From: a phage
DNA: 64,000 nt
Strand: one strand, 5' to 3'
Sequence record: PX880100.1
Of this stretch, positions 1 through 18,992 are shown in pieces. Numbering within the stretch: position 1 is the first letter of the stretch; the number at the start of each line of letters is the position of its first letter. A program made the position numbers and the translations under genes. The notes below the pieces were generated by a model. The model saw only the letters and a list, made by a program, of their open reading frames with translations, ran no database searches and was not told the origin of the DNA.

Positions 1-438
1 ATGGCAAGCAATATAAAATATAAACGCGATGCTATATCCCTTATGAGAGACGGAATAAAAAGTCAATATAAAAAAGACTCTCAATGCGCTATCTGCGGTT
101 GTGCTGAAGAATTAGAGCTTCATCATTACCATACGGTGTCTCTACTAGTTAAAAAATTTGCTAAAGAACTCCAGTTGGATTTCACTGACGAAGAAACAGT
201 CCTTTCAAATAGGACGGCATTCTATGATCGATATAGGCATGAGCTAGTAGAAGACACTGTTACCCTTTGTGTACACCATCACCAACTATTACATAAGGTT
301 TACACGAAAGAACCTCCATTATTTTCTGCTAATAAACAGAAAGCATGGGTTCAAAAGCAGAAAGACAAATTACAGAATCCTCAAGAAAAGACACAAGTCA
401 AGACTGAAATAAAATCAGGATTCGCAAGGTTCTTATAA
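1..438 (+). CDS. HNH endonuclease (145 aa), immediately upstream of portal
   Basis: Cys/His-rich HNH-type motifs (CAICGC, ELHHYH, CVHHHQLLHK). ATG sits exactly at window position 1, so the 5' end may be truncated by the window. Stop overlaps the portal start (TAATG). Confidence 0.55.
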   Translation: MASNIKYKRDAISLMRDGIKSQYKKDSQCAICGCAEELELHHYHTVSLLVKKFAKELQLDFTDEETVLSNRTAFYDRYRHELVEDTVTLCVHHHQLLHKVYTKEPPLFSANKQKAWVQKQKDKLQNPQEKTQVKTEIKSGFARFL

Positions 439-1655
439 TGGGTTTAAAAAGCTGGATTACTGAAAAGTTAAATCCGGGTCAACGTATTATAAGAGACATG
501 GAACCAGTTAGTCATCGCACTAACCGTAAGCCTTTTACCACTGGACAAGCCTATAGCAAGATTGAGATTCTCAATCGAACTGCCAATATGGTTATAGATA
601 GTGCGGCTGAGTGTTCTTATACTGTCGGAGATAAATATAATATTGTTACATACGCTAATGGCGTCAAAACAAAGACTCTAGACACTCTCTTAAATGTACG
701 ACCTAATCCATTCATGGATATAAGCACATTCCGTAGACTTGTAGTCACTGACCTACTTTTTGAAGGTTGTGCATACATCTATTGGGATGGCACATCGCTT
801 TACCATGTCCCGGCTGCTCTTATGCAGGTCGAGGCAGATGCCAATAAGTTTATCAAAAAATTTATATTTAATAATCAGATAAACTATCGCGTAGATGAGA
901 TTATCTTTATAAAGGATAATAGTTACGTGTGCGGCACAAATTCTCAAATTTCTGGACAATCTCGTGTTGCTACTGTTATTGATTCTCTTGAGAAGCGTTC
1001 TAAGATGCTTAACTTTAAAGAGAAATTCCTCGATAACGGAACCGTGATTGGTCTTATTCTTGAGACGGATGAAATCCTGAACAAGAAATTGCGTGAGCGT
1101 AAACAAGAAGAATTACAACTCGATTATAATCCTAGTACGGGTCAGTCTTCTGTCCTGATTCTAGATGGTGGTATGAAAGCTAAACCGTACTCCCAAATAT
1201 CCTCTTTTAAAGATCTAGACTTTAAGGAAGACATCGAAGGATTTAATAAATCTATTTGTCTAGCCTTTGGAGTTCCGCAAGTACTGCTTGATGGTGGTAA
1301 TAATGCGAATATTCGACCAAACATCGAATTGTTCTATTATATGACTATCATTCCTATGCTGAACAAACTGACTAGTTCTCTTACTTTCTTTTTTGGTTAT
1401 AAGATTACTCCTAATACTAAGGAAGTAGCTGCATTAACACCAGATAAAGAAGCTGAGGCTAAACATTTAACCTCATTGGTTAATAATGGTATTATGACTG
1501 GTAACGAGGCTCGTTTAGAGCTGAACCTTGAACCTTTAGATGATGAGCAGATGGATAAGATTCGTATTCCTGCTAACGTTGCTGGTTCTGCAACAGGTGT
1601 ATCTGGTCAAGAAGGTGGTAGACCTCAAGGTTCCACCGAGGGAGATAAAGAATGA
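438..1655 (+). CDS. portal protein (T5 pb7-like, 405 aa)
   Basis: Length and position match the T5 portal (about 403 aa) at the head of a capsid module (portal, decoration protein, protease, major capsid protein); ATG at 438. Confidence 0.8.
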   Translation: MGLKSWITEKLNPGQRIIRDMEPVSHRTNRKPFTTGQAYSKIEILNRTANMVIDSAAECSYTVGDKYNIVTYANGVKTKTLDTLLNVRPNPFMDISTFRRLVVTDLLFEGCAYIYWDGTSLYHVPAALMQVEADANKFIKKFIFNNQINYRVDEIIFIKDNSYVCGTNSQISGQSRVATVIDSLEKRSKMLNFKEKFLDNGTVIGLILETDEILNKKLRERKQEELQLDYNPSTGQSSVLILDGGMKAKPYSQISSFKDLDFKEDIEGFNKSICLAFGVPQVLLDGGNNANIRPNIELFYYMTIIPMLNKLTSSLTFFFGYKITPNTKEVAALTPDKEAEAKHLTSLVNNGIMTGNEARLELNLEPLDDEQMDKIRIPANVAGSATGVSGQEGGRPQGSTEGDKE

Positions 1656-2146
1656 TTGATTATAATGGTCTAAAGACCATTTTTGGTGAAAACCTGCCAG
1701 AATCTCATATCTTCTTTGCTACGGTTGCTGCGCATAAATATGTTCCTAGCTATGCTTTTCTGCGTAGAGAACTAGGGCTTTCATCTGCGCATACTAACCG
1801 TAAAGTATGGAAGAAATTTGTAGAGGCTTATGGTAAAGCAGTTCCTCCTGCTCCACCGGCTCCACCATTAACTCTTTCTAAAGATTTAACTGCGAGCATG
1901 TCAGTTGAAGAGGGAGCAGCATTAACACTTTCTGTTACTGCAACTGGTGGTACTGGTCCATATACTTATGCATGGACTAAAGATGGTTCTCCTATTCCGG
2001 AAGCTTCAGGAGCTACCTATACTAAGCCTGCAGCAGCTACGGAGGATTCTGGAGCCTATAAAGTAACTGTAACAGATAGTAAGCAAGTAAGCAAGGACTC
2101 TACTACATGTGCTGTGACAGTTAATCCTACTGTTCCTGGAGGCTAA
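1652..2146 (+). CDS. capsid decoration protein with Ig-like domain (T5 pb10-like, 164 aa)
   Basis: PPAPPAPP linker followed by an Ig-like segment (TATGGTGPYTYAWTKDGSPI...YKVTVTD); same length as T5 pb10 and same position between portal and protease. Confidence 0.7.
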   Translation: MIDYNGLKTIFGENLPESHIFFATVAAHKYVPSYAFLRRELGLSSAHTNRKVWKKFVEAYGKAVPPAPPAPPLTLSKDLTASMSVEEGAALTLSVTATGGTGPYTYAWTKDGSPIPEASGATYTKPAAATEDSGAYKVTVTDSKQVSKDSTTCAVTVNPTVPGG

Positions 2147-2149
2147 TAA

Positions 2150-2782
2150 ATGACACAAGCTGCTATTGACTATAACAAGTTAAAATCAGCACCCGTTCAT
2201 TTAGATGCTTATATTAAATCTATTGATAGCGAATCCAAAGAGGGCGTTGTAAAAATCCGTGGATTCGCTAATACAATTAGTAAAGATCGCGCTGGTGATG
2301 TAATTCCGGCTTCTGCATGGAAAACATCTAATGCACTTACTAACTATATGAAAAACCCGATTATTCTTTTCGGACACGATCATCGTCGTCCAATCGGTAA
2401 GTGTATTGATCTTAACCCTACTGAAATGGGTCTTGAAATTGAATGTGAGATCTATGAAAGTTCTGACCCAGCTATCTTTTCACTAATTAAAAACGGTGTA
2501 CTGAAAACTTTTAGTATCGGATTCCGCTGCCTAGACGCAGAATGGGATGAAGCTACTGATATATTTATTATTAAAGATTTAGAACTATACGAAGTTTCGG
2601 TAGTTTCTGTACCTTGTAATCAGGACTCAACGTTCAATCTCGCTAAGAGCATGAATGGTCATGATTATACTGAATGGCGTAAATCTTTTACTGCAATAAG
2701 TTCTAAAGCTGTCCCAGCTCAAGAACGTAATCTTTCTGAACTAGAAAAACTTGCGATAGCTTTAGGCTACGTTAAAGAATAA
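2150..2782 (+). CDS. prohead maturation protease (T5 pb11-like, 210 aa)
   Basis: Directly upstream of the major capsid gene; same length as the T5 head protease; HK97-family-like GHDHRRPIGK segment. Confidence 0.75.
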   Translation: MTQAAIDYNKLKSAPVHLDAYIKSIDSESKEGVVKIRGFANTISKDRAGDVIPASAWKTSNALTNYMKNPIILFGHDHRRPIGKCIDLNPTEMGLEIECEIYESSDPAIFSLIKNGVLKTFSIGFRCLDAEWDEATDIFIIKDLELYEVSVVSVPCNQDSTFNLAKSMNGHDYTEWRKSFTAISSKAVPAQERNLSELEKLAIALGYVKE

Positions 2783-2799
2783 CGGAGAATTATTTAAAA

Positions 2800-4176
2800 A
2801 TGACTATTGATATTAATAAGCTGAAAGAAGAACTTGGTCTGGGTGATCTGGCTAAATCTCTGGAAGGTCTGACCGCTGCTCAGAAAGCTCAGGAAGCTGA
2901 ACGTATGCGTAAAGAGCAGGAAGAAAAAGAACTGGCTCGTATGAATGACCTGGTTTCTAAAGCTGTTGGTGAAGACCGTAAGCGTCTGGAAGAGGCTCTG
3001 GATCTGGTTAAGTCCCTGGATGAGAAATCTAAGAAGAGCGCAGAACTGTTTGCACAAACTGTAGAAAAACAACAGGAAACTATTGTTGGTCTTCAAGACG
3101 AAATCAAATCTCTGTTAACAGCTCGTGAAGGTCGTTCCTTCGTTGGTGATAGTGTTGCTAAAGCACTGTACGGTACTCAGGAAAACTTTGAAGACGAAGT
3201 AGAAAAACTGGTTCTGTTGTCTTACGTAATGGAAAAAGGTGTATTCGAAACCGAACACGGTCAAAAACACCTGAAAGCAGTGAATCAGTCTTCTTCTGTA
3301 GAAGTTTCTAGTGAAAGCTATGAAACTATTTTCTCTCAGCGTATTATCCGTGACCTGCAGAAAGAGCTGGTAGTTGGCGCACTGTTCGAAGAACTGCCGA
3401 TGTCCAGTAAGATTCTTACTATGCTGGTTGAACCGGATGCTGGTAAAGCTACTTGGGTTGCTGCTTCTACTTATGGTACTGATGCAACTACTGGTGATGA
3501 AGTTAAAGGTGCTCTTAAAGAAATCCACTTCAGTACTTACAAACTGGCTGCTAAGTCCTTCATTACTGATGAAACTGAAGAAGATGCAATCTTCTCCCTG
3601 CTGCCACTGCTTCGTAAGCGTCTAATTGAAGCACACGCTGTTTCTATCGAAGAAGCCTTCATGACTGGTGATGGTTCCGGTAAGCCGAAAGGTCTGCTGA
3701 CTCTTGCTAGTGAAGATAGTGCTAAAGTTATTACTGAAGCTAAAGCTGATGGTTCCGTACTGGTAACTGCTAAAACTATCTCTAAACTGCGTCGTAAACT
3801 GGGCCGTCATGGTCTGAAACTGTCCAAACTGGTACTGATCGTATCTATGGATGCTTACTACGATCTGCTGGAAGATGAAGAATGGCAGGATGTTGCCCAA
3901 GTTGGTAATGATGCTGTTAAACTGCAGGGTCAGGTTGGTCGTATTTATGGTCTGCCGGTTGTAGTTTCTGAATACTTCCCAGCTAAAGCTACTTCTGCAG
4001 AGTTCGCAGTTATTGTTTATAAAGATAACTTCGTAATGCCACGTCAGCGCGCTGTTACTGTTGAACGTGAGCGCCAAGCTGGTAAACAGCGTGACGCATA
4101 CTACGTTACTCAGCGTGTTAACCTGCAACGTTACTTTGCAAATGGCGTTGTATCTGGTGCTTACGCTGCATCTTAA
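2800..4176 (+). CDS. major capsid protein precursor (T5 pb8-like, 458 aa) with N-terminal coiled-coil scaffold-like domain
   Basis: 458 aa as in T5 pb8; charged coiled-coil N-terminal region (EELGLGDLAKSLEGLTAAQKAQEAERMRKEQEEKELAR) typical of a fused scaffolding domain; strongly host-optimised codons (ctg, cgt, ggt); followed by a strong terminator. Confidence 0.9.
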   Translation: MTIDINKLKEELGLGDLAKSLEGLTAAQKAQEAERMRKEQEEKELARMNDLVSKAVGEDRKRLEEALDLVKSLDEKSKKSAELFAQTVEKQQETIVGLQDEIKSLLTAREGRSFVGDSVAKALYGTQENFEDEVEKLVLLSYVMEKGVFETEHGQKHLKAVNQSSSVEVSSESYETIFSQRIIRDLQKELVVGALFEELPMSSKILTMLVEPDAGKATWVAASTYGTDATTGDEVKGALKEIHFSTYKLAAKSFITDETEEDAIFSLLPLLRKRLIEAHAVSIEEAFMTGDGSGKPKGLLTLASEDSAKVITEAKADGSVLVTAKTISKLRRKLGRHGLKLSKLVLIVSMDAYYDLLEDEEWQDVAQVGNDAVKLQGQVGRIYGLPVVVSEYFPAKATSAEFAVIVYKDNFVMPRQRAVTVERERQAGKQRDAYYVTQRVNLQRYFANGVVSGAYAAS

Positions 4177-4195
4177 TACAGGCTTTTCAGCCGAT

Positions 4196-4222
4196 AAGGA
4201 GAGCTTCGGCTCTCCTTTTTTA
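4196..4222 (+). terminator. rho-independent terminator after the major capsid gene
   Basis: 9-bp GC-rich stem AAGGAGAGC/GCTCTCCTT with TTCG loop followed by TTTTTTATT. Confidence 0.75.
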
Positions 4223-4235
4223 TTGGGAAAAATAA

Positions 4236-4748
4236 ATGCAAATAATCACAGCTGAAGACTATAGATTATACGGCGGGTTAAAACGACCTGAACTAGAATC
4301 TGGAGTAGAAATGATGATTACTGCTGCCAATGCGCTGATTACTAGCCTTTTAGGTATGGATGATGCTGATGCGGTAGACCAGTTAATCAATACAAAACCT
4401 ACTCGTAAAAAATACTTCTTAAGTTCTCCCTCGGCTACTTCAGTAACCAAAATGACTATTAATGATAAGGAGATAGATCCCGAACAGTATAAGTTATACT
4501 CTGATGGGGTTATACTTCTTAAATTTAGTCCTCCAGAAGGTTATATGGATGTAGAGTACACACAAGGTGGATTTAACCCAATTCCTGAAGATCTCAAACT
4601 TGCAGCATGTATGCTAGTAGATCATTGGCATAAACAGGATTACCGTCAAGCTAAAACAATTGGCGGAGAAACAGTTACTTTTAATAATACTAAGTCTGGT
4701 ATTCCAGAGCATATTCGTACTATTATTGAAGTTTACAGGAGAGTATAA
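4236..4748 (+). CDS. head completion / head-tail connector protein (170 aa, putative)
   Basis: Position between major capsid and tail tube genes; co-oriented and tightly packed (ATGA overlap with next ORF). No motif evidence. Confidence 0.4.
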   Translation: MQIITAEDYRLYGGLKRPELESGVEMMITAANALITSLLGMDDADAVDQLINTKPTRKKYFLSSPSATSVTKMTINDKEIDPEQYKLYSDGVILLKFSPPEGYMDVEYTQGGFNPIPEDLKLAACMLVDHWHKQDYRQAKTIGGETVTFNNTKSGIPEHIRTIIEVYRRV

Positions 4749-5515
4749 TGTCTCTTTCTGATTTAGCTACACAAATTATTAAGGAGCAACTAGATAATGT
4801 TGGGCGTTCCGAGAACAATAAGAATACTGTTGTATATTCTGTTGAAACAGGACTAAAAGATCCTACTAGGGATGGTACTGTTGCTCAAGTATCTTTCAAG
4901 TTCTCAAAACCTGTATCCCAAGATCTCCTTAATGTTAGGACCGCTTCTATTCTAAAAGCTGTATCTTCTAGCTTAGATCTAACAGGAGATTTAGGTGCTC
5001 TAGAGAATTTAATACAAGCAACCGCTGGTAAAAAATCTGCTGTAGGTAAAAAACGTTCCTCTGGTAGAGTTCAAGTAAACTTCGGGGATCCTAGAGACGT
5101 AGAGGATGGATACTCGGGTGCAATAACAGGTGCTTCCGGACGTTTTGTATCAAATAGCAACATGAAGGTTATATTAGAGATAGTTGCTAAAGAGTACTTA
5201 ATAAAGGATATGAAAAAGACAGGAGCGCCATTAAAATTTAGAACTGGCAGATTTGCAAATTCTCTGAAAATTAAGGATGTTATGCTTAGAGATGCAGAGA
5301 CTAGTAAAGGCGCTCCTGAACTAAACGTGACGTATAATTATATGGTACGTCCATATTCTGTATTTAATCCAGCAGTATCTACATATCGAAGATTATCTCT
5401 ACGACCTTACCCAGGCGCTAGAAACCCCCAAAAACTTATTGGTGAGGCTATAGCAAAAGCTGCAAGAGACCTGATTCACTCTAGATATAAAATCAAGGTT
5501 AATCAAGGAACCTAA
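4748..5515 (+). CDS. tail completion / head-tail joining protein (255 aa, putative, T5 p143-like)
   Basis: Gene order (capsid, joining proteins, tail tube); no diagnostic motif. Confidence 0.35.
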   Translation: MSLSDLATQIIKEQLDNVGRSENNKNTVVYSVETGLKDPTRDGTVAQVSFKFSKPVSQDLLNVRTASILKAVSSSLDLTGDLGALENLIQATAGKKSAVGKKRSSGRVQVNFGDPRDVEDGYSGAITGASGRFVSNSNMKVILEIVAKEYLIKDMKKTGAPLKFRTGRFANSLKIKDVMLRDAETSKGAPELNVTYNYMVRPYSVFNPAVSTYRRLSLRPYPGARNPQKLIGEAIAKAARDLIHSRYKIKVNQGT

Positions 5516-5518
5516 TAA

Positions 5519-6004
5519 ATGGATCATAGAACAAGTATTGCACAAGCTCTGGTTGACCGTATATCTAAACAGTTGGATGGTTCTCAACCTGACGAATATT
5601 TTAATAACCTATATGGAAACGTTTCTCGTCAAACTTATAAATTTGAGGAAATACGAGAGTTTCCTTATGTGGCAGTTCATATCGGAACTGAAACTGGGCA
5701 GTATCTTCCTTCGGGCCAACAGTGGATGTTTTTAGAACTTCCAATCCTGGTGTACGATAAAGAGAAAACAGACATTCAAGAGCAACTTGAAAAACTCGTA
5801 GCGGATATAAAAACCGTTATTGACACAGGTGGAAATTTAGAATATACTGTTAGTAAACCTAATGGATCGACCTTCCCATGTGAGGCAACTGATATGATCA
5901 TTACATCAGTTAGTACAGATGAGGGTCTACTGGCCCCATATGGTTTAGCAGAAATAAATGTAACAGTGAGGTATCAGCCTCCACGTAGGTCACTTCGCAG
6001 ATAA
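5519..6004 (+). CDS. tail terminator protein (161 aa, putative, T5 p142-like)
   Basis: Immediately upstream of the tail tube gene; length consistent with the T5 tail terminator as I recall it. Confidence 0.4.
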   Translation: MDHRTSIAQALVDRISKQLDGSQPDEYFNNLYGNVSRQTYKFEEIREFPYVAVHIGTETGQYLPSGQQWMFLELPILVYDKEKTDIQEQLEKLVADIKTVIDTGGNLEYTVSKPNGSTFPCEATDMIITSVSTDEGLLAPYGLAEINVTVRYQPPRRSLRR

Positions 6005-6030
6005 GTTACAGATTAGGAGAAAATAACTAA

Positions 6031-7437
6031 ATGTCTTTACAACTATTACGTAATACTCGAATCTTCGTGTCTACGGTTAAGACTGGTCATAATAAGACCA
6101 ACACGCAAGAGATTCTAGTTCAGGATGATATTTCTTGGGGTCAGGACAGTAACTCAACAGATATTACTGTTAATGAAGCTGGTCCGCGTCCAACTCGTGG
6201 CTCTAAACGTTTTAACGACTCTTTAAACGCGGCTGAGTGGAGTTTCTCTACTTATATCCTGCCATATAAAGATAAAACTACTAACAAACAGATTGTCCCT
6301 GACTATATGTTATGGCATGCTCTTTCTAGTGGTAAAGCTCTTAACCTAGAAGGCGATACAGGAGCACATAATAACGAAACCAATTTTATGGTTAACTTTA
6401 AAGATAACGCGTACCACGAACTAGCAATGCTGCATATCTACATCCTGACTGACAAAGCATGGAGTTACATCGACTCTTGCCAGATCAACCAGGCAGAAGT
6501 TAACGTTGATATTGAGGATATTGGTCGTGTAACTTGGTCAGGTAATGGTAACCAGCTTATTCCTTTGGATGAGCAACCATTTGACCCGGATACTGTAGGT
6601 ATTGATGATGAAACTTATATGACTATTCAGAGTTCTTATATCAAGAACAAATTGACTATCCTGAAAATTAAGGATATGGATTCTGATAAGGCATATGATA
6701 TCCCTATTACTGGGGGTACTTTCACCATTAATAACAATATTACGTACCTAACCCCCAATATTATGTCCCGTGTAAATATTCCGATCGGTTCATTTACTGG
6801 TGCGTTTGAACTAACTGGTTCACTAACTGCCTATCTAAATGATAAATCTCTTGGTTCTATGGAACTGTACAAAGATCTTATCAAAACCTTGAAGGTAGTT
6901 AACAAGTTTGAAATCGCACTTATCCTTGGTGGTGAGTATGATGATGAACGCCCAGCAGCTGTATTAGTTGCTAAACAGGCGCATGTTAACATTCCTACTA
7001 TTGAGACTGATGATGTACTTGGTACTTCAGTAGAGTTTAAAGCTATTCCTACAGATCTGGATACTGGTGATGAAGGTTATCTTGGTTTCTCTAACAAGTA
7101 TACTAAAACCACTGTGGCTAATCTGATTACTACAGGAGATGGCGCTAAAGCTCCACCAAAACTAGTTGAATCAATCACAGTTAAATCTGCTGGTAATGCT
7201 ACTTCAGTACAGAACAGTAATACTCTACAGATGTCTGTTGAAGTAACTCCGCCAGATGCTACTAATAGTGCTGTAACTTGGTCTATTTCTAGTGGTGATG
7301 CAGCTACAATTGATCCAGAATCTGGTTTATTAACTGCGGACACTACTAAGACAGGTTCTATTACTGTCAAAGCTGTAGCTAAAGACGGTTCTGGTGTAGA
7401 AGGTACTAAGAGCATTACAGTTACTGCTGGTGGCTAA
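6031..7437 (+). CDS. major tail tube protein with C-terminal Ig-like (Big_2-type) domain (T5 pb6-like, 468 aa)
   Basis: Length close to T5 pb6 (about 464 aa); C-terminal segment SITVKSAGNATSVQNSNTLQMSVEVTPPDATNSAVTWSISSGDAATIDPESGLLTA resembles a bacterial Ig-like domain; RBS AGGAGA upstream. Confidence 0.8.
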   Translation: MSLQLLRNTRIFVSTVKTGHNKTNTQEILVQDDISWGQDSNSTDITVNEAGPRPTRGSKRFNDSLNAAEWSFSTYILPYKDKTTNKQIVPDYMLWHALSSGKALNLEGDTGAHNNETNFMVNFKDNAYHELAMLHIYILTDKAWSYIDSCQINQAEVNVDIEDIGRVTWSGNGNQLIPLDEQPFDPDTVGIDDETYMTIQSSYIKNKLTILKIKDMDSDKAYDIPITGGTFTINNNITYLTPNIMSRVNIPIGSFTGAFELTGSLTAYLNDKSLGSMELYKDLIKTLKVVNKFEIALILGGEYDDERPAAVLVAKQAHVNIPTIETDDVLGTSVEFKAIPTDLDTGDEGYLGFSNKYTKTTVANLITTGDGAKAPPKLVESITVKSAGNATSVQNSNTLQMSVEVTPPDATNSAVTWSISSGDAATIDPESGLLTADTTKTGSITVKAVAKDGSGVEGTKSITVTAGG

Positions 7438-7441
7438 TTAA

Positions 7442-8341
7442 ATGTACTACTCTCTAATGAGAGAGTCAAAAGTTATAGTTGAGTATGATGGTAGGGCATT
7501 TCATTTTGATGCCCTATCAAACTATGATATACAGACTTCCTACGAGGAATTCAAGACTCTTCGTAGGACTGTTCATCGTAGAACTAACTATGCAGACTCT
7601 ATTATAAATGCTCAAACCCCCTCTTCTATCTCTCTAGCAGTAAATTTCAGTAATACTCTTACTGAGGCTAACTTCTTTGAATGGTTAGGTTTTGATAGAA
7701 AAGGTAATACTTTCTTACTCCCACTATATAGTAGTAATATTGAACCTATTATGTTCAATATCTATATAGTAAATAAAGATAATAACTGTGTATATTTTGA
7801 AAACTGTTATGTATCTACAGTAGATTTTTCTTTAGATAAGAACATACCAATTCTTAATGTTGGTATTGAATCGGGGAAATTTTCCGAAGTATCTACATAT
7901 AGAGAAGCAGGTTCTATTATACAGGGTGAAGTAATGTCTTATAGCCCAGTAATAGCTTCTACTAATGGTAGCGTCTTACCAGGTCTTATCTCTGCCTCTT
8001 TATCTTTCCAGCAGCAGTGCTCTTGGAGAGAAGATAAGAGTGTTTTTGATATAAATAAAATCTATAATAATAAAAGAGCTTATGTAAATGAAATGAATGC
8101 TTCGGCAACCATTTCTCTATATTACTTAAAACGTTTTGCAGGAGATATGGTTTACAATATCGAACCAGAGGTAGATGTACCTTTAAATATAAGAAATAAT
8201 AATATTTCTATAGATTTTCCTTCAGCACGTATTACAAAACGCCTAGATTTCTCAGATGTGTATAGAGTTGAGTGGGATATTATACCTACTGCTTCTTCAG
8301 ACCCAGTGAGAATAGATTTCTTTGGAGAAATTAAAAAATGA
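7442..8341 (+). CDS. hypothetical tail-module protein (299 aa)
   Basis: Co-oriented ORF between tail tube and chaperone genes; AT-rich, Asn/Ile/Tyr-rich; function unknown. Confidence 0.3.
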   Translation: MYYSLMRESKVIVEYDGRAFHFDALSNYDIQTSYEEFKTLRRTVHRRTNYADSIINAQTPSSISLAVNFSNTLTEANFFEWLGFDRKGNTFLLPLYSSNIEPIMFNIYIVNKDNNCVYFENCYVSTVDFSLDKNIPILNVGIESGKFSEVSTYREAGSIIQGEVMSYSPVIASTNGSVLPGLISASLSFQQQCSWREDKSVFDINKIYNNKRAYVNEMNASATISLYYLKRFAGDMVYNIEPEVDVPLNIRNNNISIDFPSARITKRLDFSDVYRVEWDIIPTASSDPVRIDFFGEIKK

Positions 8342-8742
8342 TTAATTTAAAAGATATTACTCTTGATACTCGTACTATTACTCTTTCCTACCCAGGTATG
8401 CCGAACTTTAAACTAGAACTTAACTATATGTCTCGCGCTACCTCTAAACGTGTTATTTCTTCTGCTAAACGTGACGAATGGGTTAATGGTACACTGATAC
8501 AAGTGCAGGATGATGATAAGTTTATTGAAGCCTTTGTTGACGCAGCTATTAAAGGCTGGACTGGCTTAACTGTTGGTGACGTTGAAAAACTGATGCTGAT
8601 TGAAACTGATGCTGATCCTACTACTGAAGTTCCTTTTAGTCGCGATAATGCTGTAATGCTTATGCAGAACTCTGCTGCATTTGATTCTTGGATCAACCAG
8701 ACAGTGTTCCACTTAGACACTTTTCGTAGCTCAAAAGCGTAA
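8338..8742 (+). CDS. tail assembly chaperone (134 aa, putative)
   Basis: Acidic small protein immediately upstream of the tape measure gene, the usual chaperone position. Confidence 0.4.
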   Translation: MINLKDITLDTRTITLSYPGMPNFKLELNYMSRATSKRVISSAKRDEWVNGTLIQVQDDDKFIEAFVDAAIKGWTGLTVGDVEKLMLIETDADPTTEVPFSRDNAVMLMQNSAAFDSWINQTVFHLDTFRSSKA

Positions 8743-8803
8743 AGAACTTCTAGATGCTGTTGCTGATTTTGCAGATAAATGTATTAAAAGCTCAGCATCT
8801 AAA

Positions 8804-9172
8804 ATGACCAAACAACAATATTTAATACTTTGCGAGTCAATGGGTATAGAACCTGATCCAAAGGCTATGCCCGTTGAACTCGAAGATTTTCCACCTATTG
8901 TATCTATTAGTATGAATATTTATAACAGTCTGATTGACTGTTTCATACCGGGTGACTTTCCTATTTTTATAGGTAAGGATAAGGCTGCACTAGGTGTTTT
9001 ATTTGATATTTATGGGATTACTGATCCTATAGAAAAAGAATTTGTTCTACACATTATCAATATATTTGATGCTAAAGCTGTAGACGCTGCACGTAAACGT
9101 GCTGAGAAGCATAAACCACAAAACGGAAGGATTCCTAACGTTAAGCCACATGCTAGATCTCGTGCACGATAA
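8804..9172 (+). CDS. tail assembly chaperone, second ORF (122 aa, putative)
   Basis: Second small ORF before the tape measure gene; its reading frame is open upstream back to 8717 and overlaps the end of the preceding ORF in the +1 frame. Confidence 0.35.
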   Translation: MTKQQYLILCESMGIEPDPKAMPVELEDFPPIVSISMNIYNSLIDCFIPGDFPIFIGKDKAALGVLFDIYGITDPIEKEFVLHIINIFDAKAVDAARKRAEKHKPQNGRIPNVKPHARSRAR

Positions 9173-9207
9173 AAGTTTCCTCCAATGGGCGTTCCACGAT
9201 GAGGCTT

Positions 9208-9238
9208 GGCTCTGGGTGATTTGCCCAGAGCCTTTTTT
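9208..9238 (+). terminator. rho-independent terminator-like hairpin upstream of the tape measure gene
   Basis: Stem GGCTCTGGG/CCCAGAGCC with 7-nt loop followed by TTTTTT. Confidence 0.6.
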
Positions 9239-9255
9239 ATTGGGAAAAATAAAAC

Positions 9256-12200
9256 ATGACTGATAAGCTAATACGAGAATTACTAATAGACGTTAAACAG
9301 AAGGGGGCAACTCGTACTGCAAAGTCTATTGAAAACGTATCTGATGCGTTGGAAAATGCTGCTGCTGCTTCCGAACTGACAAATGAGCAGTTAGGTAAAA
9401 TGCCCAAAACTCTTTATTCCATTGAGAGGGCAGCAGACAGAGCAGCGAAAAGTCTTACTAAAATGCAAGCTAGCAGAGGTATGCTTAGTGTTACTAAATC
9501 TATTAATGATATAGGGGCTAAGTTAGACGACCTCGCTATTACAATGATTGAAGTAGCAGATAAATTAGAAGTCGGATTTGATGGAGTTTCTAGATCTGTT
9601 AAAACAATGGGTAATGATGTTGCAGCTGCAACAGAAAAAGTCCAGGATAGATTATATGATACTAATAGAGCATTAGGGGGCACAGCTAGGGGTTTTAATG
9701 ACACTGCTGGTGCCGCTGGCAGAGCATCTAGAGCTATTGGTAATACTTCTGGTTCAGCACGTGGTGCAACTCGTGATTTTGCGGCAATGGCTAAGATCGG
9801 TGGTAGTCTACCTATTATGTACGCAGCTCTTGCTTCTAACATCTTCGTTTTGCAATCTGCATTTGAACAACTTAAACTAGGTGATCAGCTAAATCGTCTA
9901 GAAAAATTTGGTGTTATAGTAGGTACTCAGACAGGTACTCCTGTTCAGACCCTTGCTAGATCACTACAAGAAGCTGCTGGATATGCTATTTCTTTTGAGG
10001 AAGCAATGAGACAGGCATCTTCAGCATCTGCTTATGGATTTGATGCTGAACAACTTAATAAGTTTGGTTTAGTAGCTCGTCGTGCGGCTGCTGTTCTTGG
10101 CGTTGATATGACTGATGCACTTAACCGTGTAATTAAGGGCGTATCTAAACAAGAAATCGAACTTCTGGATGAACTTGGTGTCACCATCCGTCTTAATGAC
10201 GCATACGCTGATTATGTTAAACAGTTAAATGCTGCAAACACAGGTATAACATATAATGTTAATAGTCTTACCACTTTCCAGAAACAACAAGCATACGCTA
10301 ACGCGGTAATTGCTGAATCTACTAAGCGTTTTGGCTACCTAGATGAAGTACTACGTGCAACTCCATGGGAGCAGTTTGCTGCTAATGCAGATGCTGCACT
10401 AAGAAAAATACAACAAGCTGCTGCTAAGTACTTAGGACCAGTAATTGATGCTATCAACACAGTATTTTATACATCTCAGGCTTCTATATCTGCTGAGGCA
10501 GCTAGGGCCCAAGAAAAAACTAATAGACAGATAGACCCTACCAACGTTGGTGCTGTTGCTTTAAGTTTAGCTGCTTCTGAAGAAGGCTATAATAAAGCTC
10601 TAGATATGTATAAGGAATCTCTTGATAAGCGTAATAAGCTAAAATCTGAGTTCGATAAACGAATGGAACAAGCAGATTTCTATACAAAACTAGCTATACG
10701 TCAAGTTGGTGAAGGTATTCCTGTTGGTATTGCAGCCGCGGGCGCTTCCGAAGCTAATAAAAAGTTTGTAGAAGAAACCGCAGCTATGGGTCTACAAGTA
10801 ACTAGACTCGGTAAGGAAGTAGAGGATTCTACAGAGAACCTCAATGCTTGGAAATCAGCTTATCAGGCTGCTGGAGCTGCTGCTGCAAAAGCTAATCCAG
10901 AGTTTCAGAAACAGATTAATCTACAGAGAGATACTACTGATCCTGATGCTGTATACGATTTTAACTCTACTGTATTAAAAGGACTAACTGAACAACAAAA
11001 AGCATATAATCAGACTAAGAAAACTGCTAGTGACTTAGCTAATGATATACAGAACGTTGCTCAGAATACAGATACTGCTGCTAAGACTAGTGCTACTTTA
11101 GCAGATGCTATAAAAAATATAGAATCACTATCTCAAGGTACTGGTAAAAGTGCAGACGAGTATGTTAAAAATCTCAACCTAGGCTACAACACTCTGTCTG
11201 AAATGAAAACTGCGTCTCAGGCCTTATCTGAGTACGTTAAACTAACTGGTAATGAGACTAAGAACCAGCTAGCAGTTCAACAGAAGATAGCTGATGTATA
11301 TAACCAAACTAAGGATAAAGAAAAAGCACAGGAAGCCGGTAGACGTTTAGAACTCCAACAGTTAGAAGAACAAGAAGCTGCTTTACGCCGTGTTCTTCAA
11401 ACAAACCAGGGAAATAAAGCTGTTGAGAAAGAAATTGAAAAAATTCAGCTAGAGAAACTTAAACTTACCAACCAGGGTATGGAAGCTCAGAAGAAGGTTA
11501 AGGATTACACAGATAAAATTCTGGGTGTAGATCGTGAGATAGCCCTTCTAAACGACCGTACTATGACTGCTACTCAGTATAGGTTAGCTCAGTTAAAACT
11601 AGAACTAACTATAGAGAAGGAGAAATACGAGTGGTATTCAAGACAAACTGACAAACAGAAAGAGGCTGAACAGTCTAGACGTGCCCAAGCACAAATAAGT
11701 AGAGAACTGTGGGAAGCAGAGAAACAAGCTACTGCCTCACATGTATCAGCTCTCATGGATGCCTTAGAGGTTAGCCAAACGCAGAGAAATGTCACTGGTC
11801 AGTCCCAGATTCTCACTGAAAGGTTATCCATTCTGCAACAACAGCTGGAGCTGTCTAAGGGCAATACTGAGGAAGAAATTAAATATCGTAATGAGATTTA
11901 TAAAACTTCAGCAGCCTTAGAACAGCTTAGGAAACAGAGAGATAGCCAGATGCAGCAACAGGTAGGGTCTTCTGTAGGTGCTGTATATACTCCTACAACT
12001 GGACTATCTGGAGAAGATAAAGATTTTGCTGATATGCAAAATAGAATGGCTTCTTATGACCAGGCAATCTCTAAATTATCTGAGCTAAACTCTGAAGCAA
12101 CCGCTGTGGCTCAAAGTATGGGTAATCTAACTAATGCCATGATCCAGTTCTCCCAGGGATCTTTAGATACTACTTCCCTGATTGCTTCTGGTATGCAGAC

Positions 12201-12936
12201 TGTGGCCTCTATGATTCAATATAGTACTAGTCAACAGGTTAGTGCAATTGATCAGGCTATTGCAGCAGAGCAGAAACGTGATGGTAAATCAGAAGCATCT
12301 AAAGCTAAGTTGAAGAAGTTGGAAGCTGAAAAGCTGAAAATTCAACAGGACGCAGCTAAGAAGCAGATTATCATCCAAACTGCAGTAGCAGTAATGCAAG
12401 CGGCAACAGCTGTTCCATACCCATTCTCTATTCCACTAATGGTGGCAGCAGGTTTGGCTGGTGCCTTAGCTCTTGCTCAAGCATCCTCTGCATCGAGTAT
12501 GTCGAGTATTGCTGATTCTGGAGCGGATACAACTAGTTACCTAACCTTAGGAGAGCGTCAGAAGAATATAGATGTGTCTATGTCTGCTAATGCTGGTGAA
12601 TTATCTTATATCCGTGGAGATAAAGGCATAGGCGGTGCTAACTCTTTCGTTCCTCGTGCTGAGGGTGGTAATATGTATCCAGGAGTTAGCTATCAGATGG
12701 GTGAGCATGGTACAGAAGTAGTTACCCCTATGGTTCCTATGAGAGCTACGCCTAATGATGAACTTAAAAACTCATCTAACTCAACTTCAGGAAGACCTAT
12801 CATCCTGAATATTAGTGCTATGGATGCTGCAAGTTTTAGAGAGTTTGCTTCTAGTAATAGTAGTGCTCTAAGAGACGCAGTGGAATTAGCTCTGAACGAG
12901 AATGGTGCAAGCCTGAAAACATTAGGAAATTCTTAA
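9256..12936 (+). CDS. tape measure protein (T5 pb2-like, 1226 aa)
   Basis: Largest ORF of the tail module; long alpha-helical, Ala/Gln/Lys-rich sequence; hydrophobic segment (VPYPFSIPLMVAAGLAGALALAQA) near the C-terminus; T5 pb2 is about 1219 aa. Confidence 0.9.
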   Translation: MTDKLIRELLIDVKQKGATRTAKSIENVSDALENAAAASELTNEQLGKMPKTLYSIERAADRAAKSLTKMQASRGMLSVTKSINDIGAKLDDLAITMIEVADKLEVGFDGVSRSVKTMGNDVAAATEKVQDRLYDTNRALGGTARGFNDTAGAAGRASRAIGNTSGSARGATRDFAAMAKIGGSLPIMYAALASNIFVLQSAFEQLKLGDQLNRLEKFGVIVGTQTGTPVQTLARSLQEAAGYAISFEEAMRQASSASAYGFDAEQLNKFGLVARRAAAVLGVDMTDALNRVIKGVSKQEIELLDELGVTIRLNDAYADYVKQLNAANTGITYNVNSLTTFQKQQAYANAVIAESTKRFGYLDEVLRATPWEQFAANADAALRKIQQAAAKYLGPVIDAINTVFYTSQASISAEAARAQEKTNRQIDPTNVGAVALSLAASEEGYNKALDMYKESLDKRNKLKSEFDKRMEQADFYTKLAIRQVGEGIPVGIAAAGASEANKKFVEETAAMGLQVTRLGKEVEDSTENLNAWKSAYQAAGAAAAKANPEFQKQINLQRDTTDPDAVYDFNSTVLKGLTEQQKAYNQTKKTASDLANDIQNVAQNTDTAAKTSATLADAIKNIESLSQGTGKSADEYVKNLNLGYNTLSEMKTASQALSEYVKLTGNETKNQLAVQQKIADVYNQTKDKEKAQEAGRRLELQQLEEQEAALRRVLQTNQGNKAVEKEIEKIQLEKLKLTNQGMEAQKKVKDYTDKILGVDREIALLNDRTMTATQYRLAQLKLELTIEKEKYEWYSRQTDKQKEAEQSRRAQAQISRELWEAEKQATASHVSALMDALEVSQTQRNVTGQSQILTERLSILQQQLELSKGNTEEEIKYRNEIYKTSAALEQLRKQRDSQMQQQVGSSVGAVYTPTTGLSGEDKDFADMQNRMASYDQAISKLSELNSEATAVAQSMGNLTNAMIQFSQGSLDTTSLIASGMQTVASMIQYSTSQQVSAIDQAIAAEQKRDGKSEASKAKLKKLEAEKLKIQQDAAKKQIIIQTAVAVMQAATAVPYPFSIPLMVAAGLAGALALAQASSASSMSSIADSGADTTSYLTLGERQKNIDVSMSANAGELSYIRGDKGIGGANSFVPRAEGGNMYPGVSYQMGEHGTEVVTPMVPMRATPNDELKNSSNSTSGRPIILNISAMDAASFREFASSNSSALRDAVELALNENGASLKTLGNS

Positions 12937-12943
12937 AACTGGA

Positions 12944-12970
12944 GGAGGACTTTGAGTCCTCCTTTTCTTT
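12944..12970 (+). terminator. rho-independent terminator after the tape measure gene
   Basis: 8-bp stem GGAGGACT/AGTCCTCC with 3-nt loop followed by TTTTCTTT. Confidence 0.7.
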
Positions 12971-12989
12971 ATGGAAAAATAAAAATTTC

Positions 12990-13018
12990 TTGATAAAATT
13001 TTCTAATACTATTATAAT
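12990..13018 (+). promoter_or_regulatory. sigma70-type promoter upstream of the distal tail protein gene
   Basis: TTGATA (12990-12995), 17-bp spacer, TATAAT (13013-13018); downstream RBS AAAGAGGAGAAATTAACT then ATG at 13046. Confidence 0.6.
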
Positions 13019-13045
13019 ATTGTTATTAAAGAGGAGAAATTAACT

Positions 13046-13660
13046 ATGAGATTACCAGACCCATACACGAATCCAGAACTTTCAGGCTTAGGATTCGAAA
13101 GTGTTAACCTGATTGATAATGACCCAGTAATTCGTGATGAGTTACCAAATGGTAAAGTTAACGAAGTTAAAGTATCTGCTCAATACTGGGGTATAAATAT
13201 TTCTTACCCAGAACTGTTTCCAGATGAGTATAGTGTTCTAGATTCTTTTATTTTAGAGTACAAAAGAACTGGGGGCTACATAGATGTCATATTACCACAA
13301 TATGAGGCTTTTAGGGTTAGAGGTAACACTGGCTTAGTAAATATACCTGCTGGACAGAAGGGTTCTAATATAACTATGGATACAAAAGGGCTTCTTACAG
13401 GTACCCCAAAACCGGGGGATCTATTTAAGCTGTCTAACCACCCAAAAGTATATAAAATAACATCATTTAACAAATCAGGTAATACATGGTCTATAAACTT
13501 ATACCCTGATTTATTTATAACTACTACTGGAGCGGAGAAGCCAGTATTTAATGGAATACTATTTAGAACAAAACTCATGAATGGTGATGCTTTTGGATCT
13601 ACACTAAATAATAACGGAACATACTCCAACATCTCATTAAATTTACGGGAAAGTCTATGA
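13046..13660 (+). CDS. distal tail protein (T5 pb9-like, 204 aa)
   Basis: Same length as T5 pb9 and same position directly after the tape measure and before the baseplate hub. Confidence 0.8.
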   Translation: MRLPDPYTNPELSGLGFESVNLIDNDPVIRDELPNGKVNEVKVSAQYWGINISYPELFPDEYSVLDSFILEYKRTGGYIDVILPQYEAFRVRGNTGLVNIPAGQKGSNITMDTKGLLTGTPKPGDLFKLSNHPKVYKITSFNKSGNTWSINLYPDLFITTTGAEKPVFNGILFRTKLMNGDAFGSTLNNNGTYSNISLNLRESL

Positions 13661-16506
13661 AAAAAATATTAGATAGTGCTAGAAACTACTTAAAAAATAA
13701 TAGCAGAATAAAAACTGCTAGTCTAATTTCTCTAGAATTACCCGGCTCTACTGGTACTAGTACTGCTTTTATTTACTTAACTGACTATTTTAGAGATGTA
13801 CTATATAATGGTATTTTGTACCAGGCCGGTAAAGTTAAGTCTATTAGCACACATAAACAAAATAGAGATTTATCTATTGGCAGCCTATCTTTTACTATTA
13901 CAGGTACAGCACAGGATGAAGTACTGAAATTAGTGCAGAATGGTGTATCCTTTTTAGATAGACTAGTATCAATCCACCAAGCAATTATTACAGAGAATGG
14001 TTCTATTTTACCTGTAGACCCAGACACAAATGGCCCTTTATTATACTTTAGAGGGAGAATTACTGGTGGAGGTATTAAGGACAATATCAATACTTCTGGG
14101 GTTGGAACCTCCACAATTACTTGGAATTGTTCTAACCAATTCTATGATTTTGATAGGGTTAATGGTAGATTTACTGATGATGCTTCTCATAGAGGGCTTG
14201 AGGTTGTAGCAGGACAATTAGTTCCCTCTAATGGGGCTAAAAGACTTGAGTACCAGGAAGATTATGGGTTCTTTCATGCCAATAAAAGTATCTCTATTTT
14301 AGCAAAATATCAGGTACAGGAAGAAAGATATAAGCTAAAGTCTAAGAAAAAACTATTTGGTCTATCTAGAAGCTATAGTCTTAAAAAGTACTATGAGACT
14401 GTTACTAAAGAAGTAGATATAGATTTTAACCTTGCTGCTAAGTATATACCAGTAGTTTATGGTGTACAGAAAATACCGGGAATACCTATTTTTGCGGATA
14501 CGGAATTACACAATCCTAATATAGTTTATGTAGTATATGCTTTTGCTGAAGGAGAGATAGACGGTTTTCTTGACTTTTCCTTTGGGGATAATCCCATGAT
14601 TTGTATGGACTCTAATGATAGTTCTGCTAGAACCTGTTTCGGTGTTAAAAAAGTAGCCGGAGACACCATGCAAAGAATAGCATCAGGAATATCTTCTAGT
14701 AGTCCTTCTGTGCACGGTCAGGAATATAAATATAATGATGGTAATGGTGATATAAGGATTTGGACTTATCATGGAAAAGCTGATCAAACGGCTTCTGAAG
14801 TATTAGTAAATATAGCGAAGGAACGTGGGTTCTATCTCCAAAATATGAACGGTAATGGGCCTGAGTACTGGGATGCTAGATATAAACTATTAGATACTGC
14901 ATACGCGGTAGTACGCTTTACTATTAATGAAAATAGAACTGAGATCCCAGAAGTTAGTGCTGAGATTCAGGGTAAGAAGATAAAAATCTATCATTCTGAT
15001 GGTAGAGTAACTGCTAATAGCACTAGTTTAAATGGTATCTGGCAAACACTTGACTACTTAACTTCAGATAGGTATGGCGCAAATATTACTATTGATCAGT
15101 TTCCTCTCCAACAATTAGTACAAGAAGCTGCTATCTTAGATATTATAGATGAATCTTACCAAGTATCCTGGCAGCCATACTGGAGATATGTTGGGTGGAC
15201 TGATCCATTAGCAGAAAATAGACAAATAGTACAAATGAATACTATTCTAGATACATCTGAATCAGTATTTAAAAACGTGCAGGGTTTGCTAGAGTCCTAC
15301 GGTGGGGCTATTAACAACTTATCTGGTCAATATAGGATTACTGTAGAAAAATATTCTAATACTCCATTAGAGATTAATTTTCTGGATACTTATGGTGATT
15401 TAGAGCTATCAGATACTACTGGTAGAAATAAATTCAACTCAGTTCAAGCATCCATAGTAGACCCAGCTCTTAGCTGGAAAACTAACTCTATTACCTTTTA
15501 TAACTCTAAATATAAAGAGCAAGATAAAAATTTAGATAAAAAATTACAATTATCTTTTGCAAATATAACTAACTACTATACTGCTAGAAGTTTTGCAGAC
15601 AGAGAACTTAAGAAATCTAGGTATTCTAGAACCCTCTCATTTTCTTTACCATATCAATTCATTGGTATTGAGCCTAACGATGCTATTGCATTTACATACG
15701 ACCGTTACGGATGGGATAAGAAGTACTTTTTAGTAGATGAAGTCGAAAACTCTAGGGAAGGAAAGATAAATGTTACTCTACAGGAGTATGGGGAAGATGT
15801 ATTTATCAACTCTGATCAAGTAGATAATAGTGGTAATGATATACCAGATATTAGTAACAACGTTCTTCCTCCTAGAGATTTTAAATATACTCCTACACCC
15901 GGTGGTTTAGTTGGTTCTATAGGAAAAAATGGTGAGCTATCTTGGCTTCCAAGCTTAACTAATAACGTAGTTTATTATTCTATCGTGCATTCCGGTCATG
16001 CTGAGCCTTATATTGTGCAGCAACTAGAAACAAATCCCAATGAACGCATGATCCAAGAGATAATTGGAGAGCCAGCAGGTTTAGCAATATTTGAAATAAG
16101 GGCTGTGGATATAAACGGTAGAAGAAGTTCTCCAGTAACATTATCTATAGAACTTAATTCTGCTAAAAACCTAAGCGTAGTATCTAATTTTAGGGTAACT
16201 AATACGGCTTCTGGGGATGTAACTGAGTTTGTAGGCCCAGATGTAAAACTAGCTTGGGATAGGATACCAGAAGAAGATATAATAGAAAGTATATTCTATA
16301 CTCTGGAAATCTATGATTCTCAGAATAGAATGCTAAGAAGTGTACGTATTGAAAATCAGTATACTTATGACTATTTATTAATATATAATAAGGCAGATTT
16401 TGCTCTCCATAACAGCGGTGCTCTAGGGATCAATAGAAAACTATATTTTCGTATTAGAGCAGAAGGAGATGATGGAGAACAGTCTGTGGAGTGGGCATCC
16501 ATTTAA
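13657..16506 (+). CDS. baseplate hub / tail tip protein (T5 pb3-like, 949 aa)
   Basis: Same length as T5 pb3 and conserved gene order (distal tail protein, hub, pb4). Confidence 0.8.
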   Translation: MKKILDSARNYLKNNSRIKTASLISLELPGSTGTSTAFIYLTDYFRDVLYNGILYQAGKVKSISTHKQNRDLSIGSLSFTITGTAQDEVLKLVQNGVSFLDRLVSIHQAIITENGSILPVDPDTNGPLLYFRGRITGGGIKDNINTSGVGTSTITWNCSNQFYDFDRVNGRFTDDASHRGLEVVAGQLVPSNGAKRLEYQEDYGFFHANKSISILAKYQVQEERYKLKSKKKLFGLSRSYSLKKYYETVTKEVDIDFNLAAKYIPVVYGVQKIPGIPIFADTELHNPNIVYVVYAFAEGEIDGFLDFSFGDNPMICMDSNDSSARTCFGVKKVAGDTMQRIASGISSSSPSVHGQEYKYNDGNGDIRIWTYHGKADQTASEVLVNIAKERGFYLQNMNGNGPEYWDARYKLLDTAYAVVRFTINENRTEIPEVSAEIQGKKIKIYHSDGRVTANSTSLNGIWQTLDYLTSDRYGANITIDQFPLQQLVQEAAILDIIDESYQVSWQPYWRYVGWTDPLAENRQIVQMNTILDTSESVFKNVQGLLESYGGAINNLSGQYRITVEKYSNTPLEINFLDTYGDLELSDTTGRNKFNSVQASIVDPALSWKTNSITFYNSKYKEQDKNLDKKLQLSFANITNYYTARSFADRELKKSRYSRTLSFSLPYQFIGIEPNDAIAFTYDRYGWDKKYFLVDEVENSREGKINVTLQEYGEDVFINSDQVDNSGNDIPDISNNVLPPRDFKYTPTPGGLVGSIGKNGELSWLPSLTNNVVYYSIVHSGHAEPYIVQQLETNPNERMIQEIIGEPAGLAIFEIRAVDINGRRSSPVTLSIELNSAKNLSVVSNFRVTNTASGDVTEFVGPDVKLAWDRIPEEDIIESIFYTLEIYDSQNRMLRSVRIENQYTYDYLLIYNKADFALHNSGALGINRKLYFRIRAEGDDGEQSVEWASI

Positions 16507-18563: not shown

Positions 18564-18569
18564 TAAATA

Positions 18570-18992
18570 ATGAGTACAGAAAATAGAGTAATTGATATTG
18601 TTGTTGATGAGAAAGTGCCTTATGGTCTTATCATGCAGTTTATGGATGTTGATGATAGTGTATACCCTCCTTCTGAAATACCTGTTAATCTAACAGGTTA
18701 TTCACTTCGTGGAACAATTAAAGCAAGTCTTGACGAGGATGCGGAAACTTTAGCTACTTTTAAAACTCGTATAATCGATGCGGCTCAAGGAGCTGCTGCT
18801 ATTAGCCTTAGTGTTGGAGATGTTAATAATATCGGTATTAAGGCATCCAAAGAGCGTGATAAATATAATCCAAGACAACGTTTCGCAGGTTATTACGATA
18901 TTCTAATGACTCGCGATGTTATTGGTTCAGAAGTCAGTTCTTTCCGTATTATGGAAGGAAAGGTTTATGTGAGTGACGGGGTAACTCAATAA
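18570..18992 (+). CDS. collar protein (T5 p132-like, 140 aa)
   Basis: 140 aa ORF between pb4 and the L-shaped tail fibre gene, matching the T5 p132 position and size as I recall them. Confidence 0.5.

Follow-up and report, generated by a model that had tools for sequence, protein, structure and literature searches.

A 20-nt sequence, TTTTTTATTGGGAAAAATAA, occurs twice without a mismatch in the late structural operon of a phage whose DNA (sequence record PX880100.1) we analyzed over a stretch of 64,000 nt, hereafter the window, and a variant of it occurs a third time. The exact copies are found at 4216-4235 (site 1) and 9233-9252 (site 2), and the variant at 12963-12986 (site 3). Our data indicate that this motif is probably a composite, in which the tail of a transcription terminator abuts the next expression signal of a tightly packed operon. 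More specifically, TTTTTTATT (or TTTTCTTTAT at site 3) would be the U-tracts of three terminators, of which one is located 3' of the major capsid gene, one 3' of the tail-tube/chaperone block, and one 3' of the tape-measure gene. The adjoining GGGAAAAATAA(A) would, at sites 1 and 2, be a ribosome-binding site (RBS) region, made up of a weak Shine-Dalgarno (SD) core, GGGAA, and an unstructured A-rich spacer that extends up to the ATG. At site 3, GGAAAAATAAAAATTT would be an A/T-rich, UP-element-like region spanning -52 to -37 of the strong late promoter P_G25, which would restart transcription for the tail-tip genes.

The repeat itself is real and not a chance event. Only 0.03 matches to TTTTTTATTGGGAAAAATAA are expected by chance, none of 100 shuffled sequences contained two or more, and a search allowing up to three mismatches revealed no further match in the window. 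Site 3 differs from the 20-mer at 4 of 20 positions and has in common with it the exact 11-mer GGAAAAATAAA, for which 0.12 matches are expected in the 64 kb; scanning both strands uncovered exactly three, all on the + strand. Every copy sits just 3' of a terminator hairpin, and the three copies begin at the 3' foot of the three top-scoring terminator-like hairpins within 1-20000. The window is from a T5-like phage: between 2800 and 13700, it shares 93-95% identity with complete genomes of Tequintavirus, among them Salmonella phage STP-SP2, Shigella phage SSP1, and T5_ev212. The first-pass annotation, which was made from the letters alone, had placed the three copies correctly, as well as their contexts: site 1 leads to the ATG at 4236, site 2 to the ATG at 9256, and site 3 to a promoter at 12990-13018. 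It had also proposed that the rest of the genome and T5-like relatives be searched for the motif. In relatives, no further copy turned up: the remaining 76 kb of STP-SP2 contain none within four mismatches of the 20-mer or one mismatch of GGGAAAAATAAA, and the matching T5-like contigs in the IMG/VR database have the pattern only at the two homologous sites. Matches to the 18-mer in IMG/VR contigs that are not T5-like are mostly chance occurrences inside genes. For comparison across lineages, we used 51 related loci spanning all three sites, namely, 29 close relatives and 22 increasingly distant Demerecviridae, for which the search had started from a diverged capsid protein.

The three hairpins are predicted Rho-independent terminators whose positions are conserved:

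4196-4224, + strand: site-1 intrinsic terminator, with stem-loop AAGGAGAGC-UUCG-GCUCUCCUU at 4196-4217 and T-tract TTTTTTATT at 4216-4224
9208-9241, + strand: site-2 intrinsic terminator, with stem-loop GGCUCUGGGU-GAUUU-GCCCAGAGCC at 9208-9232 and T-tract TTTTTTATT at 9233-9241
12941-12972, + strand: site-3 intrinsic terminator, 3' of the tape-measure gene, with stem-loop at 12941-12965 and T-tract TTTTCTTTAT

The site-1 hairpin has 9 pairs, 5 of them GC (-14.5 kcal/mol), and the first two T's of its T-tract also close the stem; the site-2 hairpin has 11 pairs, including 7 GC pairs (-19.1 kcal/mol), and the site-3 hairpin has 11 pairs (-15.5 kcal/mol). They begin 20, 36, and 5 nt after the preceding stop codon, respectively. 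At each of these positions, a stable hairpin (-11 to -22 kcal/mol) with a T-run directly 3' of it is present in nearly all lineages, and the stems differ. At site 1, for example, the stems are GGAGAGC/GCUCUCC, GGAGUGGGGC/GCUCCACUCC, GGGCAGGGC/GCCUUGCCC, or GGCUACCC/GGGUAGCC, depending on the lineage, and those at site 3 are mutually unrelated. The consensus fold at site 2 displays compensatory changes at alignment columns 51/75 (UA, CG, UG) and 54/72. Since hairpin and T-run stay in place while the stem sequences change, we assign these structures as terminators. We used per-sequence folds for the hairpins; MAFFT alignment followed by RNAalifold on the site-1 intergenic regions found no consensus structure, as stems of unequal length were misaligned. 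The motif had initially been considered too conserved for an ordinary T-tract. Its TTTTTTATT part, common to most lineages at sites 1 and 2, is nonetheless just that, the T-tract of an ordinary terminator. A bidirectional terminator was rejected, given that the A-run is 3' of the T-tract and not 5' of the hairpin. Literature searches retrieved no map of 3' ends or transcript ends for T5-like phages.

What follows the T-tract at sites 1 and 2 resembles a site of translation initiation:

4225-4238, + strand: initiation region of the head-completion gene, with SD core GGGAA at 4225-4229, A-rich spacer at 4230-4235, and ATG at 4236-4238
9242-9258, + strand: initiation region of the tape-measure gene, with SD core GGGAA at 9242-9246, A-rich spacer at 9247-9255, and ATG at 9256-9258
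13030-13048, + strand: for contrast, the strong SD AGAGGAG and ATG of the pb9 homologue, with an anti-SD duplex of -9.1 kcal/mol

At both sites, UGGGAA would form an anti-SD duplex of only -4.2 kcal/mol, as compared with a median of -5.9 kcal/mol over 72 putative genes of the genome, and the spacer measures 6 nt at site 1 and 9 nt at site 2. A G-rich core lies right 3' of the T-tract and 2-10 nt before the ATG in 14 lineages at site 1 and in 10 lineages at site 2, the latter being those that keep a terminator before the tape-measure gene. The cores themselves vary. At site 1, they are UGGGAA in the window, AGAGG in L029 and L030, GGAG in L031, L034, and L044, GGGG(G) in L035, L039, and L048, GAGGAA in L036, GGAGG in L041, and GGGUA in L032 and L042; at site 2, we found GGAA, GAGG, AAGGAA, GGUG, and GGAGG. 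The predicted anti-SD duplexes range from -3.3 to -10.6 kcal/mol over the lineages. In close relatives, the site-2 spacer is 6, 8, 9, or 10 nt long, a variability that fits the spacing tolerance of an SD and not a signal read in a fixed register. Similar sites with GGA and an A-rich stretch occur at other genes of the window (TTGGAGAAAAATAATAATG at 38790 and AAAAAGGAAAACAAATAATG at 60361). These comparisons support a reading of GGGAAAAATAA at sites 1 and 2 as the weak SD core and A-rich spacer of the next gene, in which GGGAA would be used as the SD. Among the three functions first proposed for the motif, that of a translation-initiation element is thus borne out at sites 1 and 2, where GGGAAAAATAA stands in the place at which every relative has an SD core and spacer, and not at site 3, where the corresponding block is the upstream region of a promoter.

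Phage T5 itself departs from this layout at site 2. A 270-aa open reading frame (ORF), T5p137, is inserted there exactly after TTTTTTATT; GGGAAAAATAAAAC is removed, and the stop codon of the inserted ORF abuts the ATG of pb2. T5p137 is found in L014 (~15012-15824) and L053 (8736-9548), has CapR-homology and treble-clef zinc-finger domains, and is not in the window or in most relatives; it is probably a mobile insertion.

Terminator-to-ATG layouts were also observed elsewhere. On the - strand of the window, a hairpin at 41354-41338 leads to a T-tract, a GGGA core in UUUGGGAUAUGUAAAUG, and then the ATG at 41314, and the T-tract of a second hairpin (29835-29816) runs straight into the ATG at 29803 with no visible SD. 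In a third terminator-like hairpin on that strand (38005-37977), the SD (GGGGAGGGGG) is the 5' arm and the ATG (37991) is in the loop. In addition, two unrelated IMG/VR contigs, L058 (1889-1960, - strand) and L061 (~1870-1935, + strand), contain a hairpin of -17 kcal/mol that leads to TTTATTAGGAAAAATAAAT and an ATG. L058 comes from a 167-kb contig; there, the junction lies between ORFs of 309 and 331 aa, and a PHROGs search with the neighboring proteins gave no match. The L058/L061 junction looks like an independent instance of a terminator joined to a ribosome site.

At site 3, no ribosome site follows the T-tract, and the block belongs to a promoter instead:

12973-12989, + strand: A/T-rich, UP-element-like region of P_G25, GGAAAAATAAAAATTTC, at -52 to -36 when +1 is taken as 13025
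12990-13018, + strand: core sigma-70 promoter P_G25, TTGATA-17-TATAAT, matching 11 of 12 consensus positions
31032-31046, - strand: second exact copy of the 15-mer GAAAAATAAAAATTT, ending 3 nt upstream of TTGCTA-18-TATAAT (31028-30999), with no preceding terminator

The GGAAAAATAAAAATTTC block runs directly into the TTGATA of P_G25, and in the T5 record AY692264, the annotated feature 'promoter P-G 25' starts at TATGGAAAAATAAAAAT and has the site-3 block inside it. UP elements consist of A/T tracts that precede the -35 hexamer, and their critical adenines are those at -41 to -43 (PMC4390567). The site-3 A/T tracts fall within the UP-element zone of about -59 to -38, directly 5' of the -35 hexamer, and the A-runs span -50 to -46 and -44 to -40. 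In T5, primer extension detected transcripts from P_G25 and P_J5 once 30 min of infection had passed (PMC7472727). An A-run and then T's (AAAA(A)TT) are likewise seen just 5' of the -35 hexamer at other strong promoters of the window, and a majority of the distant relatives have retained an A-run slightly 5' of the -35 hexamer at site 3 within otherwise different sequence. In 2005, Wang et al. reportedly described AAA-TTT(T) as a motif of strong T5 promoters that lies 5' of the -35 hexamer. The decisive point is that GAAAAATAAAAATTT, with exactly two copies in the window and 0.02 expected, recurs at a promoter that no terminator precedes. Judged by this recurrence, the site-3 block is the upstream region of a promoter and not a ribosome site, and it may be contacted by RNA polymerase through its alpha C-terminal domain (alphaCTD).

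Two further observations concern these promoters. The copy of GAAAAATAAAAATTT on the - strand lies in a region (31140-30990) with tandem strong sigma-70 promoters, TTGGCA-17-TATAAT at 31128 and TTGCTA-18-TATAAT at 31028. The two are followed by almost the same sequence (TATAATATATACATAAATT...GAG), and the second has the 15-mer of P_G25 as its upstream block. Downstream of P_G25, ATTAAAGAGGAGAAATTAACTATG at 13023-13048 (+ strand) comprises the leader and the start of the pb9 homologue. We take it to be identical to the RBS of pQE/pDS-type expression vectors. The 21-mer turns up in 14 papers, where it appears to belong to primers or vectors.

The composite reading has consequences for the expression of the genes that follow sites 1 and 2. 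The distance from the T-tract to the ATG is 11 nt at site 1 and 14 nt at site 2, and the promoter scan listed no promoter between terminator and ATG at either site. A hidden promoter was rejected: the best candidate by eye, TTGCCC-17-GAAAAT at site 2, agrees with the consensus at just 8 of 12 positions, and site 1 offers no usable candidate. Because no promoter lies in these intervals, the head-completion and tape-measure genes would be transcribed only by read-through, and the terminators at sites 1 and 2 would therefore have to be partial. Both terminators follow genes for abundant proteins (capsid at site 1, tail tube and chaperones at site 2) and are themselves followed by genes whose products are needed in low copy. 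Together, a leaky terminator and a weak SD would lower the output of the low-copy proteins relative to the abundant upstream ones, and we postulate that these junctions may contribute to protein stoichiometry. Leaky terminators that grade expression along a phage operon have been documented for LUZ7, in a study that also cites T7 (PMC9163698).

Several points weigh against an explanation by abutting signals alone. We infer termination efficiency, read-through, and SD use at these sites from sequence. Three exact 11-mers, where 0.12 are expected, exceed what the composite model needs, and the GG at site 3 plays no part in it. Despite the weakness of the SD, the T5 clade has preserved the block well. 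In four diverged lineages, the 40 nt of hairpin and tail at site 1 are 82-97% conserved, against 62-78% for the flanking coding DNA, and L042 is identical at 39 of the 40 positions; this excess could reflect an additional constraint. A marginal U:A hairpin, UUUAUU/AAUAAA, could also take part, but at -1.5 to -2.3 kcal/mol we regard it as too weak to serve as an argument. The tails may share a common ancestor, or a particular low-efficiency initiation region may have been selected in parallel.

A stronger version of the composite model would treat the whole junction, hairpin/U6AUU/GGGAAAAAUAA/AUG, as a selected 'attenuator-coupled initiation module' with a fixed low output of head-completion and tape-measure proteins. 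In such a module, the read-through U-tract would act as an S1-type enhancer, or it would pair with the A-run (UUUAUU/AAUAAA) and leave the weak SD in the loop; at site 2, it may act together with a conserved, CCUCC-containing element at 9173-9207. Were this true, the sequence identity between sites 1 and 2 would be functional and not incidental. We consider it unlikely.

The element in question is the one item of this analysis that is worth follow-up:

9173-9207, + strand: conserved noncoding element AAGTTTCCTCCAATGGGCGTTCCACGATGAGGCTT, 35 nt, preceded by the stop codon of the 122-aa ORF and followed by the site-2 terminator

Its sequence is kept across Demerecviridae. A coding function was rejected, as insertions and deletions between lineages break any reading frame. 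A covariance model built from eight lineages also finds the element in L034, L035, L039, L041, L044, and L049. In L034 and L041, and probably in L035, L039, and L049, the terminator is followed by a gene of ~250 aa and not by the tape-measure gene, and in L044, no ORF of tape-measure size was called 3' of the terminator. Since the element is also present where another gene follows, it appears to go with the upstream gene or the terminator and not with the ribosome site of the tape-measure gene. Its CCUCC resembles the anti-SD of 16S rRNA. RNAalifold pairs CCUC with GAGG without compensatory changes, and the element has no match in Rfam. A long-range partner was sought and rejected, in that a 12/15 match at 5875-5889 is at chance level and a duplex scan did not single it out. 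GGGCGTTCCAC has only one exact copy and is thus not a repeated site.

Among the alternatives to a composite of adjoining signals, one holds that the similarity is mainly historical, arising from a duplicated terminator-plus-RBS cassette or from recombinational homogenization, and has no meaning beyond the generic functions of its parts. In several deep lineages (the window, L030, L032, and L042), the sequences at sites 1 and 2 both approximate TTTTTTATTGG(G)WAAAAT, and L025, L026, and L028 have an identical 23-mer, including the ATG, at both sites. The unrelated 167-kb contig with its hairpin, TTTATTAGGAAAAATAAAT, and ATG suggests in turn that such junctions arise readily. The stems of the three hairpins are unrelated, however, so that any duplication would be ancient and only the tails constrained, and no signal of concerted evolution was detected within genomes. 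Gene conversion between sites 1 and 2 was rejected on the same grounds: the within-genome edit distance (42, permutation mean 45.4, p = 0.18) is not smaller than that between genomes. A mainly historical origin has, in our view, a small chance of being the better account, and it is compatible with the composite explanation and not opposed to it.

It is improbable that GGAAAAATAAA is one dedicated cis-acting signal that a phage or host factor reads at all three sites, be it an antitermination or read-through modulator, a target of Hfq on A-R-N repeats, or a site for a late-gene regulator coupling termination to downstream expression. This idea draws on the three exact 11-mers in the same register after a terminator hairpin (0.12 expected), their presence nowhere else in the ~140 kb examined, the good preservation of the block in the 29 close relatives, and the conservation of the site-1 block above that of the flanking genes. 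Nevertheless, distant relatives (L029, L031, L034-L036, L041, L044, and L048) retain the terminators and genes while other sequences, including other SDs, replace the block, and T5 lacks the block at site 2. The register is not fixed either: the ATG is 6-10 nt away at site 2 in close relatives, whereas 60 nt without an ATG follow at site 3. The site-3 copy extends to a 15-mer that is shared with the terminator-less promoter. Moreover, sites 1 and 2 do not co-vary within genomes (permutation p = 0.18), and a comparison of 4000-13200 with the covariance models of Rfam 15 gave only three matches, all at chance level (E = 5.5-9.2). Together with the ordinary nature of the T-tract, these results do not support the single conserved element that the first-pass annotation had envisaged at the three sites.

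RNase E favors A/U-rich, unstructured stretches beside stem-loops. The A/U-rich block, which is predicted to be unstructured and adjoins a stable stem-loop, could on that basis be an endonucleolytic processing site (e.g., for RNase E) that separates a hairpin-protected, stable upstream mRNA from the downstream message, but this is very unlikely, as no motif of the R-N-W-U-U type was seen in GGGAAAAAUAAAUG (inspected by eye, without a formal scan), a cut within the block would deprive the downstream gene of its sole ribosome site, the hairpins of 9-11 bp are too short for RNase III, distant relatives do not keep the block, and the site-3 block lies upstream of the transcription start of the next unit.

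The gene order and gene lengths around the three sites agree with the T5 record AY692264:

2800-4176, + strand: homologue of the major head protein pb8, with stop codon at 4174-4176
4181-4192, + strand: small hairpin GGCU-UUUC-AGCC predicted by RNAfold between the capsid stop codon and the site-1 terminator
4236-4748, + strand: T5p144 homologue, the head-completion gene (Pfam PF24163, head completion protein, E = 4e-80)
after the T5p144 homologue: homologues of T5p143 and T5p142, in the order found in T5
6031-7437, + strand: homologue of the tail tube protein pb6
then homologues of T5p140, T5p139, and T5p138, the last being the 122-aa ORF at 8804-9172, + strand
9256-12936, + strand: homologue of pb2 (tape measure/pore-forming protein), 1226 aa, with stop codon at 12934-12936
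13046-13660, + strand: homologue of pb9 (distal tail protein)

On the + strand, the promoters closest by are a putative one near 4660-4688 and P_J5 (5820-5848), the latter being annotated in T5. The relatives L017, L029, L031, and L032 retain a GGC...GCC hairpin at the position of 4181-4192. The 122-aa ORF has an open frame that starts as early as 8717 and thus runs over the end of the 134-aa ORF at 8338-8742 (overlap 8717-8742, + strand). A tail-chaperone frameshift fusion of the two ORFs is possible; the 122-aa ORF lies in the +1 frame relative to the 134-aa ORF, and a +1 or -2 shift would be needed, not a -1 shift. Elsewhere in the window, a 12-13 bp hairpin at 24478-24506, AAACCCCAGUGG...CCACUGGGGUUU, has a terminator score on both strands and is likely a bidirectional terminator between convergent genes that end at 24473 (+ strand) and 24511 (- strand).

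Collectively, the parts of the motif are ordinary and largely already annotated in T5, so that a statistically striking repeat is assigned ordinary functions and adds little new biology. The map of the late operon that emerges would read as follows: capsid block, leaky terminator, head-completion and following genes, P_J5 and the tail-tube block, leaky terminator, tape-measure gene, terminator, P_G25, and tail-tip genes. Such a map is useful for the annotation and engineering of T5-like phages. The case also carries a caution, in that repeats of a motif can arise where two generic signals abut.

With respect to known systems, HK022 put and lambda nut offer only the general idea of a sequence that controls read-through near the terminators of a late or early phage operon. 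Those elements are structured or protein-binding and lie upstream of terminators, whereas the block described here lies 3' of the hairpin and has no conserved structure, family conservation, or Rfam match. With UP elements and the '-43 region' of strong sigma-70 promoters (rrnB P1; T5 P_G25), site 3 has in common A/T tracts at -52 to -37, A-runs over -41 to -43, and a near-consensus -35 hexamer, and the block is present at two promoters; here, however, its distal half coincides with the T-tract of the terminator before it, and a role as an UP element is only putative. Sites 1 and 2 share with typical SD regions a G-rich core 6-9 nt from the ATG, complementarity to the 3' end of 16S rRNA, a position that is kept while the sequence varies, and an A-rich spacer predicted to be unstructured. 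They differ in the weakness of the core (GGGAA, -4.2 kcal/mol, against the genome median of -5.9 kcal/mol), and the upstream U-tract may add S1-type enhancement. T7 has a partial terminator after its major capsid gene. Like the leaky terminators of LUZ7 and T7, those at sites 1 and 2 combine a GC-rich hairpin with a U-tract, follow an abundant structural gene, and precede promoterless genes that would depend on read-through, for which graded expression is expected. Their leakiness is read from the layout, and, unlike in LUZ7 and T7, the U-tract is fused without a gap to the next ribosome site.

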